A stretch of 64,000 bases of DNA, taken from a virus. Shown here one piece after another: positions 9,073 to 17,032 of this stretch. Made by a program: the position numbers and the translations under genes. The notes under the pieces are model-generated. The model was given only the letters and a program-made list of their open reading frames with translations. It made no database searches and had not been told where the DNA came from. Position 1 is the stretch's first letter. Every line of letters begins with the position of its first letter. The stretch spans positions 64,060-128,059 of the IMG/VR virus record IMGVR_UViG_3300021185_002167. One strand, written 5' to 3'.

Positions 9073-9513
9073 ATGAATATTGAACAATTAAAAGAAACAC
9101 TAAAAATTGACGAAGGAGTAGTTTATGAAATTTATAATGACCATCTTGGTTATCCAACATTTGGAATTGGTCACCTCGTTCTTGAACGGGACGGAGAACA
9201 TGGGTTACCGGTGGGTACTCCAGTCTCAGAGGATAGAGTTAGCGAATGCTTCGAACAAGATGTACAAATAGTAATAGAAGATTGTAAAAAATTACACGAC
9301 GGATGGGATGGATATCCTCAAGAAGTGAAACAGATCATTGCGAACATGATGTTCAATATGGGACTTACGCGCTTAAGTAAATTTAATAAACACAATGCAG
9401 CGCTGCAGTGTGGTGATTGGAAGGAGGCTGCTATAGAAGGCAGAGATTCAAGATGGTACAAGCAAGTAACAAACAGAGCCGAGAGGCTAATGAAAAGACT
9501 CGAAGAGGTATAG
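9073..9513 (+). CDS. T4-type lysozyme (GH24)
   Basis: DEG....IY.DHLGYPTFGIGH catalytic E-D-T pattern, NM.FNMG and SRWYKQVTNRA.RL. Confidence 0.93.
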   Translation: MNIEQLKETLKIDEGVVYEIYNDHLGYPTFGIGHLVLERDGEHGLPVGTPVSEDRVSECFEQDVQIVIEDCKKLHDGWDGYPQEVKQIIANMMFNMGLTRLSKFNKHNAALQCGDWKEAAIEGRDSRWYKQVTNRAERLMKRLEEV

Positions 9514-9616
9514 AAGCGAACTATAAAGGACGTTTTTACTGCCATGAGAGAAAGGATTATTTCCCTTGGAAAGAATTCGTTAACTATAAATATAATAAAT
9601 GATGGAGGTAAATATT

Positions 9617-9916
9617 ATGGATATATCATTCATAGTGATTGTTGGAGTCGTGGTAGCCATAGTTGGTTATGCAATATACGATTCAATGAAACCCGGTTCA
9701 GGAGTTAGAGCAAGAAATGAAAAGGGACATTATATAAAAGATGACCCTACTACTGCTAAGAACGAAGCTTTCGTAGATGGTAAAACACCACCTAAGAAAA
9801 AGAAAGCTCCGGTCAAGAAAAAGCCAGCGGCTAAAAAGCCTGCAGCTAAGAAAACAGTAGCTAAGAAAGCTCCTACGAGAAAACCTAGGGCAAAGAAAAC
9901 TACGACAAAAAAATAA
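9617..9916 (+). CDS. Membrane-anchored protein with Lys/Ala/Pro-rich histone-H1-like tail
   Basis: N-terminal TM, RARNEKGHY..DDP.T..NEAF motif, KKPAAKK repeats; GGAGG upstream; TATAAATA at 9585-9592. Confidence 0.7.
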   Translation: MDISFIVIVGVVVAIVGYAIYDSMKPGSGVRARNEKGHYIKDDPTTAKNEAFVDGKTPPKKKKAPVKKKPAAKKPAAKKTVAKKAPTRKPRAKKTTTKK

Positions 9917-9937
9917 TTTGCAAATTAGTTTTTATAA

Positions 9938-9963
9938 GAGGGGACTTTAAAGTCCCTTTTTTT
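9938..9963 (+). terminator. Rho-independent terminator
   Basis: GGGACT-TTAA-AGTCCC followed by T7. Confidence 0.88.
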
Positions 9964-9986: not shown

Positions 9987-9994
9987 TATAAATA
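9987..9994 (+). promoter_or_regulatory. T4 gp55-type late promoter heading the curli/cyclase cassette
   Basis: Intergenic TATAAATA just after the terminator. Confidence 0.75.
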
Positions 9995-10027
9995 ACCATA
10001 TAAGTTAATTTATAGGACAATAATAAC

Positions 10028-10279
10028 ATGGCAACAGTAAAACTTAAAGGATCAGAAACTAATTTAGCAACTGATACTAACGTTAATTTCGCTACATTAG
10101 TAAGAGTAGTAAATAATAAAACATCAATTCAGCTTATAACTATAAAAGATGCTGGTGGTAGTACTAAAGGTACATTTACAATGACAGCTGGTTCAGTAGA
10201 ATTAGTTGAAAAAACCGCAACTGATACTCTTTTAGGAGCTGCAACATCATTAGCAGTTAAAGTAGCATTCACTAAGTAA
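10028..10279 (+). CDS. Small beta-rich hypothetical protein
   Basis: AGGA RBS; first gene after the late promoter. Confidence 0.7.
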   Translation: MATVKLKGSETNLATDTNVNFATLVRVVNNKTSIQLITIKDAGGSTKGTFTMTAGSVELVEKTATDTLLGAATSLAVKVAFTK

Positions 10280-10575
10280 TGGGTGAAATATTTACGCTTA
10301 TATCCGATCTAGGATTACCTATTGCGGGTGCTCTAGTAATGGGATATTTTATATTTGTTATAATAAAGCAAATACTTGAAGGCGTTGTTGATGACATAAA
10401 CACTCTTACAATGTTTTGTTCATCACTTGAGAATAGAGCAAGAACAATGAGTAATGAAATGATTAAAATAGATTTACTTGTAAGTAGTGCATTGGAATTA
10501 AGACCCGATGTCGAAAGAATAGCTAGGGCAGAAAATTTTATTGAAGATGGAAAGCTCGACGTAAGAAGAGATTAG
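10279..10575 (+). CDS. Single-TM plus coiled-coil protein (YvrJ/BhlA-like architecture)
   Basis: LISDLGLPIAGALVMGYFIFVII followed by a helical tail. Confidence 0.65.
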   Translation: MGEIFTLISDLGLPIAGALVMGYFIFVIIKQILEGVVDDINTLTMFCSSLENRARTMSNEMIKIDLLVSSALELRPDVERIARAENFIEDGKLDVRRD

Positions 10576-10576
10576 T

Positions 10577-10846
10577 ATGGAACTGGAAATAGCTGATATA
10601 GTAGGTAAGTATGGATTTCCAACTGTCATGGTTGTAGGTTTAGGATATTTTGTATATTTTGTTTATAACTTTATACAAGAACATTTAGACCCTGCAACAG
10701 AAAAAATGCATTTTCAATTAATAAAAGTGATTGACCAAATGAGAATGTTAGACCAAGACCTTATAAGATTACAGCAAAAAGTAGATACAGTATTGGAATA
10801 TAAAGAAAATGAAAAGAAAAAACAAGATAGAAAAGATGAAGTATAA
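10577..10846 (+). CDS. Single-TM plus coiled-coil protein, apparent paralog of the previous gene
   Basis: IVGKYGFPTVMVVGLGYFVYFVY followed by a heptad-rich tail. Confidence 0.65.
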   Translation: MELEIADIVGKYGFPTVMVVGLGYFVYFVYNFIQEHLDPATEKMHFQLIKVIDQMRMLDQDLIRLQQKVDTVLEYKENEKKKQDRKDEV

Positions 10847-11348
10847 AGCAGAAGCATTTACCTTAATGGGAATATTTATTTTGTCGATATCAAGTCTTGG
10901 TGTAAGTGCTGCAGAGATAGTACATAAATTTAAAAATCCTTCCTTTAGTGGAATAGGTACTGCTTCTCATTATCTTACTGTAGAGAATCAAGAATTCTCT
11001 CGTAAGAAATCTATAGAAGAAGCATTAGCTGCAGCAGAAAAAGCAGCGCAAAGAGAAGCTGAGAATACTACTCTTGCTAAGTTTATAAGAAACTTGGAAA
11101 GTAGAATATATGCTCAAATGTCAAAACAACTTGTTGAGAGTATGTTTCAAAATGATGGCGCAGTAAGATTTGGTTCCTTTACATTAGAAGGATCAGTCGT
11201 TACTTATGAAGTGATAACCAATGAAGATGGTTCAGAATATATTAAAATGTCTATAATCGATGCAAATGGAACTGAAACTGTTATTCAAATTCCTATAGGA
11301 ACAGGTTACTTCGGGAGCGATTATGGTACGTCAGCTGACGGCGGTTAG
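10836..11348 (+). CDS. csgF: Curli assembly protein CsgF-like
   Basis: Signal peptide then AEIVHKFKNPSFSG (CsgF F.NP.F.G motif), F...LESRIYAQ.S.QL; directly upstream of csgG. Confidence 0.85.
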   Translation: MKYKAEAFTLMGIFILSISSLGVSAAEIVHKFKNPSFSGIGTASHYLTVENQEFSRKKSIEEALAAAEKAAQREAENTTLAKFIRNLESRIYAQMSKQLVESMFQNDGAVRFGSFTLEGSVVTYEVITNEDGSEYIKMSIIDANGTETVIQIPIGTGYFGSDYGTSADGG

Positions 11349-12240
11349 TCTTTCAATAGCCCTATTATCTAGTTGCGCAGCTGTACCTAGATACTCAGAA
11401 AATCCTCAGGATTGTAATAAAGATACATGGGGCGAACAGTATGACCATGACCTATGGAACTATGCAAAAGCTTCAGGAAGAACATTTGAAAGAGCAATAC
11501 CGTTTATATGTGTTGACGCACCTGAAGTTGTTAAGTTACCATCATTTATAAAACTACTACAACTTCCACCAGCTGAATCTAAACCAGTAGTTGCAGTTTA
11601 CCAATTTGCAGATAAAACTGGTCAAAGAAAAGCAAGAGAAGGTATAGCCGATTTTTCTACAGCAGTTACTCAAGGTAGTACTGAAATGTTAATTGATGCT
11701 CTTAAAAGCGCAGGTAATGGTAGTTGGTTTAGAGTTGTAGAGAGACAAGGATTAGATAACCTTGTAAGAGAAAGACAAATTATTAGAAGTGCTCGTCAAG
11801 ATATTGCAAAAGCAAAAGGCGAAGAAGAAGCACAAGGTATACAACCACTATTATTTGCTGGAATGATAATAGAAGGTGGTATAATAGGTTATGATACAAA
11901 CATCCTATCCGGTGGCCGTGGAGCTAGAACGTTAGGTATAGGAATAAGCAGACAATATCGTAAAGATGTTGTAACAGTTTCAATTAGAGCAGTATCTGTT
12001 CTAACTGGAGAAGTTTTATTAAACGTCCAAAGTAAGAAAACTATCTTATCTTATGGAAGTGGCGGTGATATTTTTCGATTTATCGAAGAAGGTACACAAT
12101 TGATAGAGTATGAAGACGGAGTGGGTAAAAATGAGTCAGTGACATACGCAGTACGAACAGCCATCGAGGCCGGAGTACTGGAATTAATCAACCAAGGTCA
12201 TGATAGAAGATTTTGGAAAATAGAAGGAAAAGAAACATGA
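11323..12240 (+). CDS. csgG: Curli secretion channel lipoprotein CsgG
   Basis: Lipobox LLSSC; VAVYQF.DKTGQRK, FSTAVTQG, WFRVVER.GLDNL..ERQIIR, EGGIIGYD, V.TGEVL motifs. Confidence 0.95.
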   Translation: MVRQLTAVSLSIALLSSCAAVPRYSENPQDCNKDTWGEQYDHDLWNYAKASGRTFERAIPFICVDAPEVVKLPSFIKLLQLPPAESKPVVAVYQFADKTGQRKAREGIADFSTAVTQGSTEMLIDALKSAGNGSWFRVVERQGLDNLVRERQIIRSARQDIAKAKGEEEAQGIQPLLFAGMIIEGGIIGYDTNILSGGRGARTLGIGISRQYRKDVVTVSIRAVSVLTGEVLLNVQSKKTILSYGSGGDIFRFIEEGTQLIEYEDGVGKNESVTYAVRTAIEAGVLELINQGHDRRFWKIEGKET

Positions 12241-12962
12241 TAAAATATATTTTAGGCCTAAGTTTATTTTTTAGTTTAAACTCTTTCGCAGCAGCATCTG
12301 ATGATAATGAAATTAATATTGCTCAAGTAGGTGATACACTTACTTTGTATATTGACCAAGTAGGATACGGTAACAAAATAGGACTTGATAACTTTGACAG
12401 TAGTTCAAGTGCTATGCCGATTACTGGGTCATCATTAACTTTCAATATCGACCAAATAGGTAATGAAAACTTACTCTTTGGTAAACTCACAGCAGATTCT
12501 TCATCTTACACTTTAGAGTGGAATGGTGATAATAATGTTTGGGATTGGATGATTGGAGAAACTGGTTCAGCTGATAGTTCAAACTATTTAGTTGATATAA
12601 CTGGTGACTCTAATACTATGGACCTAGACCAAGGTTCATTATTTAGTGCGGAAAGATTAAATTTTGATTTAACAGTTTTAGGTAGTTCGAACGTATTTGA
12701 TGTTGACATAGAAACTGATGATGTTATATGGAACTTTGATGTTACAGGTAGCACAAATAATATTAATACTTTACAAAAAGATGGATACTATAATGAGATT
12801 AATTTTACTCTTGATGGTTCCGGAGCTGATGTAGACATTAACCAGATATCTGGTACGTGTCCTACAGGAGTTTCAAGTTGTAAGGGTATTATAACACTTG
12901 ATGTGGATAGTGAAAATGCAACAATTCAAATCAATCAAAAAGATTCAGCTAACGATAGTTAA
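12237..12962 (+). CDS. Secreted curlin-like beta-repeat protein (CsgA/B-like)
   Basis: Signal peptide; repeated x-I-x-Q-x-G-x-x-N units (IDQVGYGN, IDQIGNEN, ITGDSN, VLGSSN, VTGSTN); adjacent to csgG. Confidence 0.72.
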   Translation: MIKYILGLSLFFSLNSFAAASDDNEINIAQVGDTLTLYIDQVGYGNKIGLDNFDSSSSAMPITGSSLTFNIDQIGNENLLFGKLTADSSSYTLEWNGDNNVWDWMIGETGSADSSNYLVDITGDSNTMDLDQGSLFSAERLNFDLTVLGSSNVFDVDIETDDVIWNFDVTGSTNNINTLQKDGYYNEINFTLDGSGADVDINQISGTCPTGVSSCKGIITLDVDSENATIQINQKDSANDS

Positions 12963-14073
12963 TCTTATACTTGTAGGGTTTGTTTCGGCAGACCCTATAG
13001 GTTCTATTGTAGAGCAGTCCGGTTCTACGCAAATTAAAAGACAACAAGAACAAATAAAAATAACTGATGAGGTACAACCTGATATTCAGTTAAATGATGT
13101 AGCTGAAACGGCGAATGGTAAACTAAAAATAAAGTTTTTAGATGACGCTCAATTAGATATCAAAGAACATAGTGAAGTGTTAATTGATGAAATATATTAT
13201 GACCCAGACCCATCACTCTCTAAAATGTCAATGAAGTTTACTATGGGAACAGCAAGATTTGCTTCAGGTTCTCTTGGATTAGTAAACAAAGCGAATATAG
13301 ATATACAAACACCAACAGCCACGATAGGTATTCGTGGTACAGATTTTACAACAACAATTGATGAACTTGGAAGGTCATTAATTATGTTACTTCCTGATGT
13401 AAATGGCGATCCATCAGGAGAGATTACAGTTACAAACGAAGCTGGAGTTATAACTCTTAATCAAGCTTATCAAGCAACAATGGTATCTTCGTTAAATACA
13501 ATGCCAACTAAACCTGTTACTATCGGTGGTATTACACCTTCAATGATTGATAATATGTTTATTGTTAATCCACCAAAAGAAGTAAAAGAAGCTATAGAAG
13601 AACAGGTAAAGGATGATTCAAATAAAGACCAAGGATTACTTGATATAGATTACTTAGAATATAACGAATTAGAAAAAGACTTTGATGATTATGCTAACGA
13701 TCCTGATTATGACGCTCGAAATGGTAGGATTGATGTTGATTTTTTAGCTGGTGAATTTTTACCAGACCTTTTAGATGTTGTAGAAGAATTAATTAAAACA
13801 ACTGTTGTACTTGGAGATAAACAAGGAGCAACTGGTGGAACAGCAGGATTTAAACTTGAAGGTGCTCAACTTGGACTGAATAAGGATAGTCAATATAATA
13901 TATTCTTAGAAGATTCAGGTATTGTATTCTTTAGAGATATTAATGGTGTCATAAATCTTATATTCGAAGCAGGAGCTTCAGTTAATCTTAATACTGTTGT
14001 TGATGGTTATGAAGGAACAATCACAATGAATGGTGGAGACGATATAAATATTTACATAAGGCAGGTAAACTAA
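12916..14073 (+). CDS. FecR-domain periplasmic protein
   Basis: Signal-like N-terminus; D...T.NG...I.FLD...L.I.EHSEV.ID, G..RF.SG, I.TPTATIGIRGTDF and G.I.V.N.AG. Confidence 0.88.
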   Translation: MQQFKSIKKIQLTIVNLILVGFVSADPIGSIVEQSGSTQIKRQQEQIKITDEVQPDIQLNDVAETANGKLKIKFLDDAQLDIKEHSEVLIDEIYYDPDPSLSKMSMKFTMGTARFASGSLGLVNKANIDIQTPTATIGIRGTDFTTTIDELGRSLIMLLPDVNGDPSGEITVTNEAGVITLNQAYQATMVSSLNTMPTKPVTIGGITPSMIDNMFIVNPPKEVKEAIEEQVKDDSNKDQGLLDIDYLEYNELEKDFDDYANDPDYDARNGRIDVDFLAGEFLPDLLDVVEELIKTTVVLGDKQGATGGTAGFKLEGAQLGLNKDSQYNIFLEDSGIVFFRDINGVINLIFEAGASVNLNTVVDGYEGTITMNGGDDINIYIRQVN

Positions 14074-14144
14074 TGAAAGAAAAAAGAAAAACTCTTGTAT
14101 CAATTTGGACAAATGGTAAAAAAACAGTGAGAGTATACTCATGA
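14073..14144 (+). CDS. 23-aa micro-ORF bridging the FecR gene and the second curlin-like gene
   Basis: MKEKRKTLVSIWTNGKKTVRVYS; TAATG overlap upstream and ATGA overlap downstream. Confidence 0.4.
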   Translation: MKEKRKTLVSIWTNGKKTVRVYS

Positions 14145-14788
14145 AAATGATAGCATATATATGGCTTATCTCATTTTGTGCTCTTTCATTTGCAGGAGAT
14201 AACCACGTACATATAGAACAAGTTGGTGGTGGAGATAATGTTGAGATTGATGTTACTCAAATAGGATATGATAATGAAATTAATTTTTCATTCGATCATC
14301 AAAATAATGTGTTTAACTTAAATCAAACTGGAAGTGGTAACTATATTGGTTGGGTTTCCTATTGGGGTTCAGGTAAATCATGGGGTGGTGATGTTGATGG
14401 TACTAATAATAGCGAATCAGTTATGCAATTAAACGGTGCGACTTATGGTAGACATATATGGGGAAATAGTAATGACGTTGATATATATCAGAATGGAACA
14501 CATACTCATAACCTAGACTTACATGCTAATTCTGTAGACCATGACCTATGGCAAGAAGGAAGTGGTAGTCATTATAATCATACTTATTTTTATGGCTCAT
14601 CATCTTATTCAGATACAAATATAATGCAAAAAGGAACTGGTTCTCATAACTCTCAAATCACATTACAAGGTTCATATGCAACTACATTAAATATATTACA
14701 ACAAGGATCGATTAATCAAGCTTATTCATTAACTCAAAATTGTCAAACAGTAGGCGGTTGTACAGTATCAATTACTCAAGGAAATTAG
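14141..14788 (+). CDS. Second secreted curlin-like repeat protein
   Basis: Signal peptide ending SFA; repeats IEQVGGGDN, VTQIGYDN, LNQTGSGN, IYQNGTH, LWQEGSGSH, IMQKGTGSH, ILQQGSIN. Confidence 0.78.
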   Translation: MKMIAYIWLISFCALSFAGDNHVHIEQVGGGDNVEIDVTQIGYDNEINFSFDHQNNVFNLNQTGSGNYIGWVSYWGSGKSWGGDVDGTNNSESVMQLNGATYGRHIWGNSNDVDIYQNGTHTHNLDLHANSVDHDLWQEGSGSHYNHTYFYGSSSYSDTNIMQKGTGSHNSQITLQGSYATTLNILQQGSINQAYSLTQNCQTVGGCTVSITQGN

Positions 14789-14811
14789 TATAACACTTTG
14801 TATTACACTTT

Positions 14812-16650
14812 ATGAAATATTTAACTTCAATATGGACAACTATTATACTTGGTATTACACTTTTAGGTGTAAGAATTCTAGACCCTCAGTTATTAGAACA
14901 GTTTAGGCTCAGCATATTCGATCAGTATATACAATCTCTTCCAGTAGAACATTCGAACGATATAGTGTTGATTAATATATCCGAGTCTTCACTCGAAGCT
15001 TATGGTCAATACCCTTGGCCACGTCAGAATCACGCAGCAGTGATTTCTGATTTAAGGAACTCGAATGCTGGCATGATAGGGTTTACTATAATGTTTCCAG
15101 AAGAAGATCGTTTCGGAGGTGACACTATCTTTGCGTCTTGGATAAAAGATAATGGTATTATTCTTGCACAAGATGCGGATCAAAATGGGAGAAGTTCTAA
15201 AGCACCTTATGTAGGGTATGCAACATTTGGTTATTCAGGAGATCCATTAGATCTTACATATCGATATAAAGGACTGATTACAAATATAGAAGAATTAGAG
15301 AAACATGCATGGGGAGTAGGTCTATTAAATGGAGCTCCTGAAGTAGATAATCTTACAAGAAGAATACCATTAATGTCTCAAGTTAACGGAGATTTATATC
15401 CATCATTTGCATTAGAAACTGTAAGAGCAATGCAAGATAAGAAATCGTATACAATAAAGTTAAATGAAGCTGGAATTGAAAGTATAGTATTAAGACCTTT
15501 TATAATACCAACAGATGAGAGAGGTAGTATATGGTTAAAATGGAATACACACTTTGAATCAATTGATTATGATGGACAACCATTACCAGATTTAAAAGGA
15601 AAGACAGCAATTATAGGAGTTACTGCAAAAGGTATTGTTCCTCAAGTATCTACTCCAGCTGGGTTATTATATCCACATCAAATACAAGCAAATGCATTAC
15701 AGACAATAATATCTGATAATCCTATATCACGGCCTCAATGGACTTATCTTGCTGAACTTGCAATGATTCTGATTGGTTCTCTTCTGATTGTATTAACTGT
15801 ATACTATCTTCCGATATGGGTCGGTGCTGTATCCTTCGTCGGCTCTGCAATCGCTGTAAGCTTTGCTTCTTATTACGCCTGGTACGAATTTTCTATACTC
15901 CTCGATTTATCAGCTACTCTAATAATATATATACTTTTACTCACCTCATCGAGTTTCAATAATTTTTATAAACAATTCGTATTAAGACAACAAGTAAAGA
16001 AACAATTTGGTACATATGTATCTCCTGACTTAGTTAAACAATTACAAAAAGACCCATCACTCTTACGATTAGGTGGAGAAAGAAAAGAGATGACCTTTAT
16101 GTTTATGGATATATGTGGATTCACTCCTATATCAGAATATTATAAAAACAAAGATGACCCAGAAGGACTTGTAATTCTTATAAATAATTATTTAGATACT
16201 ATGACAAAAATCGTTTTAAAGAACGGTGGAACTATAGATAAATTTATGGGTGATTGTATCATGGCATTTTGGAATGCTCCACTTGATTGTGAAGACCATG
16301 CCTTTAAAGCTGTACAAACATCGATCGAAATATGCGAGGCAGCTGATGAACTTATACAACAACTTGAAGAGCAAGGTTTACCTAGGATTGATATTGGCAT
16401 TGGTATCAACACCGGGACTTGTATTGTCGGAAATATGGGTTCAGAATCTAGATTTGACTATTCCGTCATTGGAGATGCCGTTAACCTCGGGGCTAGACTC
16501 GAAGGCCAAACAAGAAATTATGATGGGGTTCGAGTGTTGTTGGGACCGGAAACTTATAGAAGCTGTAAAGACCGAAGAGTATTTACACAAATCGATAGAA
16601 TCCGTGTTAAAGGAAAATCCGAGAAAGTTACAATATACTCACCAATCTAG
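14812..16650 (+). CDS. CHASE2-domain class III adenylate cyclase
   Basis: CHASE2 motifs (I.E.SL..YGQYPWPR, D...RRIPL, YPSFALE), three TM helices, cyclase motifs FMDICGFT, DKFMGDCIMAFWNAP, GIGINTG, GNMGS..RFDYSVIGDAVNLGARLE. Confidence 0.95.
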   Translation: MKYLTSIWTTIILGITLLGVRILDPQLLEQFRLSIFDQYIQSLPVEHSNDIVLINISESSLEAYGQYPWPRQNHAAVISDLRNSNAGMIGFTIMFPEEDRFGGDTIFASWIKDNGIILAQDADQNGRSSKAPYVGYATFGYSGDPLDLTYRYKGLITNIEELEKHAWGVGLLNGAPEVDNLTRRIPLMSQVNGDLYPSFALETVRAMQDKKSYTIKLNEAGIESIVLRPFIIPTDERGSIWLKWNTHFESIDYDGQPLPDLKGKTAIIGVTAKGIVPQVSTPAGLLYPHQIQANALQTIISDNPISRPQWTYLAELAMILIGSLLIVLTVYYLPIWVGAVSFVGSAIAVSFASYYAWYEFSILLDLSATLIIYILLLTSSSFNNFYKQFVLRQQVKKQFGTYVSPDLVKQLQKDPSLLRLGGERKEMTFMFMDICGFTPISEYYKNKDDPEGLVILINNYLDTMTKIVLKNGGTIDKFMGDCIMAFWNAPLDCEDHAFKAVQTSIEICEAADELIQQLEEQGLPRIDIGIGINTGTCIVGNMGSESRFDYSVIGDAVNLGARLEGQTRNYDGVRVLLGPETYRSCKDRRVFTQIDRIRVKGKSEKVTIYSPI

Positions 16651-16948
16651 AGATAGAGAGATTCTATTGACATGGTATTTACTTAATGCATTAGATGTCC
16701 ATTCAACGTTAAAAGGATTAAAATATTCATGTATAACTGAAGCCAATCCAATACTGCCAACTGTACCACATAGGGATAATCTCTTAATTCATAAATCAAT
16801 TGTATTAAGTAGTTTCTTTAATTTAGATCTATGGAGTGCTGAAGAAATATGGGTAATGAATCTTGTTATGGCTTCTGTTGTTATCGATAATTATAAAATT
16901 GTAAATAGATCTAAAAAAAATCCAACAACGTGTCCTAAACGCGGTTAA
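16604..16948 (+). CDS. Small membrane protein, DUF5658-like (start uncertain)
   Basis: 3' part of track ORF 16250-16948; LNALDVHST..GL.....EANP pattern; candidate GTG at 16604. Confidence 0.5.
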   Translation: MLKENPRKLQYTHQSRDREILLTWYLLNALDVHSTLKGLKYSCITEANPILPTVPHRDNLLIHKSIVLSSFFNLDLWSAEEIWVMNLVMASVVIDNYKIVNRSKKNPTTCPKRG

Positions 16949-17003: not shown

Positions 17004-17032
17004 TTTACATTTGCTCCCAACTAGGGTATAAT
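17004..17032 (+). promoter_or_regulatory. sigma70-type early promoter
   Basis: TTTACA-17bp-TATAAT; 28/29 identical to 17988-18016. Confidence 0.85.

Follow-up and report, generated by a model that had tools for sequence, protein, structure and literature searches.

A published pelagiphage curli region in an uncultured marine myovirus, with its FecR and CHASE2 cyclase genes read as a candidate sensor pair

What would a marine phage gain from encoding, side by side, a curli channel, curlin-like proteins, a FecR-domain protein and an adenylate cyclase? The question is raised by a stretch of 64,000 nucleotides (hereafter the window; positions 64,060 to 128,059 of IMG/VR virus record IMGVR_UViG_3300021185_002167), which is the second half of a record of 128,059 bases with an estimated completeness of 71%. 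The source is an uncultured T4-like marine myovirus, with a gp6 that is ~40% identical to its nearest cultured relatives, Melnitz, Mosig and HTVC008M. The conserved block runs from 10279 to 16650 of the window on a single strand, with genes that mostly overlap or lie a few bases apart, and accounts for ~5% of the 128-kb contig. Its products are two small membrane proteins, CsgF, CsgG, two curlin-like proteins with a FecR-fold protein encoded between them, and, last, a CHASE2 adenylate cyclase. With a probability of about 0.5, the block is best explained as the curli region published for pelagiphages, read as a fibre export arm combined with a FecR/CHASE2 sensor pair that would signal from the periplasm to the cytoplasm through cyclic AMP (cAMP).

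The architecture itself is already known. A first interpretation of the window, made from the letters alone (hereafter the sequence-only reading), had held that the complete arrangement was so far undescribed in phages. That claim has to be withdrawn, as the whole block is found in the searchable text of Wittmers et al. 2022 (PMC9599517), where the viral type VIII secretion (curli) region of pelagiphages comprises one or two small ‘HK’ genes, CsgF, CsgG, CsgA/B, FecR, commonly another CsgA/B, and an adenylate cyclase. The same text places the region in podovirus and myovirus pelagiphages, reports its expression in metatranscriptomes and infers an alphaproteobacterial origin. It puts FecR, HK and the cyclase outside bacterial type VIII secretion operons, and CsgE and CsgD are likewise given there as not in the phage region.

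The window block is like this published region in its families, their order and the phage context, with phage backbone genes on either side of it. HTVC008M and Melnitz show the same gene order, and the GenBank annotation of Melnitz lists CsgF, CsgG, a ‘curlin associated repeat protein’, a ‘FecR domain protein’ and the cyclase. Conversely, identity between the window phage and the cultured pelagiphages amounts to only about 40-50%, and the block departs from the wording of PMC9599517: no kinase domain was found by Pfam in the small proteins, the FecR protein is without an anti-sigma part, and CHASE2 is not named in the searchable text of that paper. Zaragoza-Solas et al. 2020 (PMC7029224) and Buchholz et al. 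2022 (PMC9004378) treat only CsgF/CsgG and their neighbours, and the words ‘FecR’, ‘cyclase’ and ‘CHASE2’ are absent from both main texts. A full-text literature search combining CHASE2, phage and curli returned no paper. It may follow that the naming of the CHASE2 sensor domain and the comparison with NsrA/CyaK are unpublished, yet they would be a re-reading rather than a discovery.

Conservation of the block among phages

The domains of the block proteins were assigned by Pfam and PHROG scans and their topology by a hydrophobicity scan. The domain calls of the sequence-only reading were all upheld, those of the curlin-like proteins at the level of their families. For a close set of loci, IMG/VR was scanned on the basis of CsgG and the best 80 of 128 related loci were retained; all 80 are colinear with the window. 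A FecR gene is present in every one of the 64 loci that extend 2.8 kb or more beyond the start of csgG, and a second curlin-like gene plus the cyclase in every one of the 34 with at least 7.5 kb. The co-occurrence of FecR and cyclase genes with csgFG in related phages, implied when the sequence-only reading described these genes as one cassette, is thereby borne out.

For a distant set, a FecR representative 28% identical to that of the window served as query, and the best 80 of 325 viral loci (L145-L224) were taken. The order CsgF, CsgG, curlin, FecR is kept in 79/79 of them, and where 9 kb is available on each side the CHASE2 cyclase is found in 41/42 and the pair of small membrane genes in 38/42. 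The fixed core order is CsgF-CsgG-curlin-FecR-curlin, with the cyclase 0 to 6 kb beyond it and on the opposite strand in three loci. The G+C content of the distant loci ranges from 31 to 47% and their contigs reach 357 kb; the gene set therefore extends beyond a single phage group. Its seven families occur jointly even between deeply diverged phages.

The small membrane pair opens the block in the window. The first gene, tmA (10279..10575, + strand; phrog_18771, E 9e-27), encodes a bitopic protein of 98 residues with one N-terminal hydrophobic segment, and the second, tmB (10577..10846, + strand; phrog_18771, E 6e-24), encodes an 89-residue paralogue that aligns with it. In both, a G-F/L-P motif precedes the membrane segment, which is followed by a conserved helical stretch. 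No histidine-kinase domain was found in either protein by Pfam at E <= 0.1, in contrast to the ‘HK’ label given to the small genes in the searchable text of Wittmers et al. 2022. Of the named Atlas clusters, the YvrJ family comes closest (score 0.87), which is taken as a lead only. Among the distant loci the pair lies 3′ of the FecR gene in 36 of the 52 that possess it, and within 200 nt of the cyclase in 12 of the 45 that possess both; it nonetheless appears from these loci to belong to the gene set even where relocated.

The block is also found well beyond a single assembly. The stretch is present at no less than half of the sampled words in 15 DNA runs, and the runs that hold it, DNA and RNA together, number 20 and come from 17 studies. 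Contigs from another run span the junctions between curlin-like gene 1 (cur1) and FecR, FecR and curlin-like gene 2 (cur2), cur2 and the cyclase, and the cyclase and the DUF5658-like gene that follows, and one contig spans tmB to CsgG. Runs with small word shares (X19, X20) were left out of this junction evidence. The GC content is even across the window. Contigs from RNA libraries cannot reveal transcript starts, ends or strand, and their gaps in X16 and X17 are meaningless.

Searches with the FecR protein provided a similar picture. More than 5,500 close relatives were found among public metagenome proteins, and the matches listed by a search for proteins of near equal length are close marine relatives only. 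Ten distant FecR representatives are all metagenomic and carry no informative names, and a search with P0244 had no match in viral contigs. A scan of bacterial-genome contigs gave seven matches of 44-63% identity, all of them in metagenome-assembled genomes (MAGs), which carry the labels Sphingobacteriales, Synechococcus, Rhodobacterales, Planctomycetaceae, Saprospirales and ‘bacterium’. These contigs, of which two measure 121 and 142 kb, are read as phage genomes that were binned into MAGs.

The export arm and the FecR/CHASE2 pair

The first protein of the putative export arm is a CsgF homologue (10809..11348, + strand; PF10614, E 4.4e-15, above the Pfam cut-off) with an N-terminal hydrophobic, signal-peptide-like segment. 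The N-terminus of its mature part, F-K-N-P-S-F-x-G, is invariant in 16/16 relatives. Neither its sequence nor its profile matched a solved structure at E <= 1. It is followed by CsgG (11323..12240, + strand; PF03783, E 2.4e-53), a lipoprotein with an N-terminal hydrophobic segment and its lipobox at Cys18, and the subunit of the outer-membrane channel. Residues 72-303 match the solved E. coli CsgG at E 1.5e-49. Ahead of the Pfam domain lies an N-terminal extension of ~60 residues (window 11323-11560), and the lipobox cysteine C18 as well as C31 and C63 are invariant in 16/16 relatives. Alignment to E. coli CsgG shows an altered constriction-loop region in the phage protein, within which the pore-lining residues are those we presume to have that role.

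The curlin-like proteins are encoded on either side of the FecR gene. Cur1 (12237..12962, + strand; alternative TTG start at 12213) matches Curlin_rpt at E 0.0066 and cur2, of 215 residues (14141..14788, + strand), at E 0.099. Among relatives, 15/16 of the cur1 family and 12/16 of the cur2 family (best E 2.8e-6 in the latter) match Curlin_rpt at E <= 0.1, and curlin repeats can be read in both family alignments. The two families are paralogous (hhalign 98.9%), albeit conserved to different degrees: the mean column identity is 72% for cur1 (conserved) and 43% for cur2 (variable). An N-terminal hydrophobic segment was detected by the scan in cur2, whereas that of cur1 is below the threshold and similar by eye only. 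Between the FecR gene and the cyclase, curlin-like genes differ among loci in number and size. The window has one gene of 215 codons, and elsewhere (L010, L082, L001 and many of L145-L224) open frames of more than 800 codons or two genes follow the FecR gene.

As in bacterial curli systems, homologues of CsgG and CsgF are accompanied by proteins that come after them, here candidate curlin-repeat proteins, in the csgF-csgG order of Alphaproteobacteria. Unlike the E. coli csgBAC/csgDEFG system, the phage block is without CsgE, CsgC and CsgD (no match to these families among the ten proteins of the block by Pfam) and its CsgG carries the extension of ~60 residues.

The FecR-fold protein (12916..14073, + strand; PF04773, E 3.4e-7) matches phrog_37870 over its full length. 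Comparison with relatives sets its start at ATG 12916, not 12898. A model from a 77-row alignment reached a mean predicted local distance difference test (pLDDT) score of 84 and consists of an N-terminal hydrophobic segment, a beta domain (29-205), an acidic helical linker of low confidence and a small second beta domain (314-385). The beta domain superposes on the C-terminal cell-surface signalling domain of PupR (6ovk) with Z 15.0 and a root-mean-square deviation of 2.6 over 135 residues, and a second structure, 4m0n, was matched with Z 13.3. The 314-385 domain has a pLDDT of ~92 in the full-length model, with the N-terminal domain dominating the fold-search lists. Folded alone from a 16-row alignment, the C-terminal domain reached a mean pLDDT of 61, too low for a fold search, and an Atlas search with this part gave no usable match. 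A profile match between this domain and the C-terminus of cur2 (65%, E 5.8e-5) was dropped, as it was seen with one alignment and gone with another.

The protein shares the periplasmic signalling-domain fold with the FecR/PupR anti-sigma regulators. Unlike them, it has no membrane anchor beyond the signal-peptide-like segment, and no cytoplasmic anti-sigma domain was found in it by Pfam, in the model or in the hydrophobicity scan. No extracytoplasmic-function (ECF) sigma factor, TonB-dependent transducer or FecI/FecA partner was found by Pfam in the block. Because the PupR signalling-domain fold is present and the anti-sigma part is missing, the protein is assigned to an exported periplasmic kind and hence not to the iron regulators.

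The cyclase (14812..16650, + strand) combines a CHASE2 domain (PF05226, E 2.4e-40) with a class III adenylate cyclase domain (PF00211, E 2.2e-19). One transmembrane segment lies ahead of the periplasmic CHASE2 domain and three lie behind it. The best solved relative of the catalytic domain is P. aeruginosa CyaB (3r5g, E 1.7e-36), to which the catalytic motifs align identically, and D433, K477, D481, R547, N558 and R562 are invariant in 16/16 phage relatives. We take these residues to serve in metal binding, substrate recognition and transition-state stabilization, as is usual for class III enzymes. With its adenylate-specific motifs intact, the enzyme is predicted to make cAMP. A C-terminal tail of ~70 extra residues ending in W-D-G-V-Y-R-A-T is present in the cyclases of L044, L050, L073 and Melnitz (L002:6932-8983). 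A predicted complex of CHASE2 (24-310) with the mature FecR protein (26-385) scored 0.00 with a mark of 0.32, which, obtained with no controls, is neutral on binding.

Bacterial relatives offer a precedent for the pairing. According to the accessible part of PMC9239204, a Campylobacterota cluster comprises a CHASE2 cyclase, a phosphodiesterase, a FecR-domain protein of the outer membrane and a TPR protein, and that of PMC5192318 describes a Burkholderia operon of a LysM/FecR protein and a CHASE2 kinase. In Sinorhizobium meliloti, NsrA is described together with CyaK/CyaD (CyaD1/CyaD2), and this outer-membrane protein is required for the response of the CHASE2 cyclases to an external protein signal (PMC13001267 and PMC7529298, in the sections available). 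In 300 alphaproteobacterial genomes, we further inspected 8 kb on each side of the 20 best cyclase matches. A FecR-domain gene recognized by the phage FecR profile directly adjoins the CHASE2 cyclase at four of the 20 loci (L125:5343-7745, L127:3660-7781, L128:6469-7542, L138:10299-13157). All four neighbours carry a Pfam FecR domain at the N-terminus. Those of L127 and L138 continue into cadherin-like and Big_9 parts, in L127 also into RTX repeats, whereas those of L125 and L128 have the FecR domain only. In L127 and L138 the FecR domain looks like a common adaptor placed before adhesin-like parts. Together with the published clusters, as far as the consulted portions of those papers describe them, the four loci uphold the partnership of CHASE2 cyclases and FecR proteins that the sequence-only reading had cited for Sinorhizobium.

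The phage pair is like these bacterial pairs in having a TM-CHASE2-3TM-class III cyclase beside an exported FecR-domain protein. It differs in that the phage FecR protein is without a barrel (no outer-membrane beta-barrel was found in its model), that no phosphodiesterase, TPR protein or Clr-type receptor was found by Pfam in the block, and that curli genes are missing beside the bacterial modules: CsgG, CsgF or curlin-like genes were found near none of the 20 CHASE2 cyclases of the sample. CsgG matches occur in 6/300 genomes and provide five strong loci. There csgF precedes csgG in all five and curlin-like genes follow in three, and no FecR-like or CHASE2-cyclase gene lies within 9 kb at any of the five. 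Within the bacteria sampled, the phage block therefore looks like two bacterial modules joined and interleaved, in agreement with the remark on FecR, HK and the cyclase in the searchable text of PMC9599517.

The cyclase on its own is common in these genomes. The phage cyclase profile is matched at E <= 1e-20 in 174/300, in many cases over the full length, and a 175th match is a MAG that contains a phage contig (G001 contig C7). In nine Alphaproteobacteria of 0.8-1.2 Mb (G029, G047, G118, G128, G129, G171, G195, G221, G282), matches to the cyclase profile have E values of ~1e-36 to 1e-64, in G129 over the catalytic domain only. Streamlined Alphaproteobacteria thus appear to carry class III cyclases of their own.

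Transcription signals and the edges of the block

The unit upstream of the block, which holds a lysozyme gene and a small membrane protein gene, is closed by a terminator-like hairpin (9936..9961, + strand) with an 11-pair stem and a T run. A TATAAATA box, similar to T4-type late promoters, follows at 9987..9994 (+ strand; sequence scan). In the window as a whole this string occurs 22 times against 14.3 expected. Of 76 related loci with room for it, 58 have a copy no more than 600 nt 5′ of the gene that opens the small membrane pair. The operon-like layout proposed earlier, with same-strand and mostly overlapping genes behind a late-type promoter at 9987, is thereby retained, and the genes are intact and packed as a single compact unit behind the late-type box. 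A second TATAAATA box (14043..14050, + strand) is located within the 3′ end of the FecR gene, 91 nt ahead of cur2. Such a box is found within 200 nt 5′ of cur2 in 14/57 related loci, close relatives only, and that at 14043 may supply extra late transcription to this variable gene. A further copy at 16179 was rejected as a promoter: it lies inside the cyclase gene, encodes a conserved I-N pair, and relatives have it at an identical offset. The end of the block is marked by a sigma-70-like promoter of the next unit (17004..17032, + strand), which with 11/12 matches is the best of the region.

At the edges, genes are found that are less firmly attached. The first gene after the late-type box encodes an 83-residue protein (10028..10279, + strand; phrog_19805) in which the hydrophobicity scan found no transmembrane segment. 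It is restricted to closer relatives and stands outside the conserved set. At the other end lies a loosely attached gene for a small DUF5658-like protein (16667..16948, + strand; PF18902, E 2.9e-5, exactly the Pfam cut-off) with TTG 16667 as the most likely start. It was found by tblastn in 16/38 close loci and 0/52 distant loci. The gene list of the sequence-only reading therefore holds for families and positions, and needs correction in the start of the FecR gene (ATG 12916), in that of the last gene (TTG 16667) and in the first late gene, which falls outside the conserved set.

Just 5′ of the block lie a T4-type lysozyme gene (9073-9513) and, between it and the block, a gene (9599-9916) for a protein of 105 residues that has a single membrane segment and a tail rich in lysine. 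A lysozyme gene within 4.5 kb 5′ on the same strand is present in 20/45 close loci and 0/69 distant loci, and no lysozyme match was found at the HTVC008M and Melnitz loci. As this adjacency is not conserved, the idea of a lysis cassette derived from the gene at 9073-9513 was rejected.

Readings of the block

If the block is the published curli region with an export arm and a sensor pair, its action could be described as follows. Late in infection, the Sec system would export CsgF, the lipoprotein CsgG and the two curlin-repeat proteins. CsgG and CsgF would form a channel in the outer membrane through which the curlin-like proteins would exit, and the exported proteins would build fibres on the infected cell. 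By analogy with the bacterial pairs, the FecR-fold protein and the CHASE2 cyclase would act as a sensor pair that converts the state of the periplasm into cAMP. Because FecR-domain proteins partner CHASE2 enzymes in bacteria, a CHASE2 sensor pair is a better reading of the genes annotated as ‘FecR’ and ‘cyclase’ than an iron regulator.

A number of results weigh against this explanation. On the side of the export arm, cur1 and cur2 of the window score 16.8 and 13.0 bits and remain below the Pfam cut-off of 20.7, the cur1 profile gave no match by sequence among solved structures, and CsgE is absent from the block. On the side of the sensor pair, a cyclic-nucleotide-binding domain (PF00027, E <= 1) was not found in the 128-kb phage contig, which is 71% complete, so the predicted cAMP output is left with no known reader. 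By the phage-derived profile, 16/20 bacterial CHASE2-cyclase loci have no FecR neighbour. The cyclase and the second curlin are rarer in podovirus versions of the region, according to the searchable text of PMC9599517, and at one distant locus, L156, no cyclase was found within 10 kb; therefore, the FecR protein may act without the cyclase. Lastly, the RNA-library contigs that span most of the block are no proof of transcription, since the libraries possibly contain DNA.

A more far-reaching version was proposed in the sequence-only reading. Here the parts form one relay, in which an outside event (a superinfecting phage, cell contact or fibre assembly) would pass from the fibre, CsgF and CsgG to FecR and on to the CHASE2 cyclase, and the resulting cAMP would tune lysis timing or host physiology. 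In favour of this, all layers of the envelope are covered by the parts, and the seven families stay together across deep divergence even after rearrangement. Moreover, the curli and sensor halves are apart in the sampled bacteria, so that their union is specific to the phages, and NsrA of S. meliloti sets a precedent for an outer-membrane protein needed by CHASE2 cyclases, as described in the available parts of PMC13001267 and PMC7529298. However, no link was found between the FecR protein and CsgG, CsgF or the curlins. The weak profile match between the FecR C-terminal domain and cur2 depends on the alignment. The phage FecR protein is without the beta-barrel part of NsrA, the phage contig holds no cAMP receptor, and the link to lysis is not helped by a lysozyme adjacency restricted to 20/45 close and 0/69 distant loci, with none at those of HTVC008M and Melnitz. 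The full relay is therefore considered unlikely. Similarly doubtful is the specific proposal that FecR informs the cyclase about the state of the phage curli channel or fibre, or about that of the periplasm under superinfection, and so sets lysis timing or excludes other phages. If this were true, the block would be a phage-built, outside-in cAMP device that joins two bacterial modules which are unjoined in the bacteria sampled.

Alternatively, CsgG and CsgF may serve as a pore without any fibre, either for lysis timing in the manner of a pinholin or secretin (Buchholz et al. 2022) or for the import of nutrients or cofactors (Zaragoza-Solas 2020; Wittmers 2022), as these papers suggest in the parts available. 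The late-type promoter, the missing CsgE gate and the changed constriction-loop region relative to E. coli CsgG fit such a pore, as does the position of the window block behind genes for a T4-type lysozyme and a small membrane protein; infected cells were, in the accessible text of Buchholz et al. 2022 (PMC9004378), seen unclumped. Still, two curlin-repeat genes are present in all loci with room for them (34/34, 80/80) and would be superfluous for a bare pore, CsgF is always retained, and the position beside lysozyme is not conserved. A pore alone is thus rated as quite improbable.

An iron- or citrate-responsive FecR protein, with the cyclase as a regulator of the curli genes at the level of transcription, is the reading suggested by the Pfam domain name and by the discussion available from PMC9599517. 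It is regarded as very unlikely: the protein has a signal-peptide-like N-terminus and a PupR-like periplasmic domain alone, with no anti-sigma domain, the block holds no ECF sigma factor or TonB-dependent transducer, and the FecR domains beside bacterial CHASE2 enzymes are fused to adhesin-like parts in 2/4 cases and not to anti-sigma parts. The concern raised with the sequence-only reading that the cassette might be a host fragment misassembled into a phage contig is practically eliminated, as phage genes flank the same block in HTVC008M, Melnitz and 160 IMG/VR loci, 15 DNA runs hold the stretch among the runs from 17 studies, contigs of another run cross the junctions, and the GC content is even.

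What is added here to the published region is narrow, namely the reading of FecR and the cyclase as a CHASE2 sensor pair, the union of curli and sensor modules that is unseen in the sampled bacteria, and the inclusion of the small membrane pair in the set. Few marine viruses are as abundant as the phages of SAR11-type bacteria. A phage that supplies a pore, fibres and a cAMP-making sensor that its host lacks must gain something important from them.

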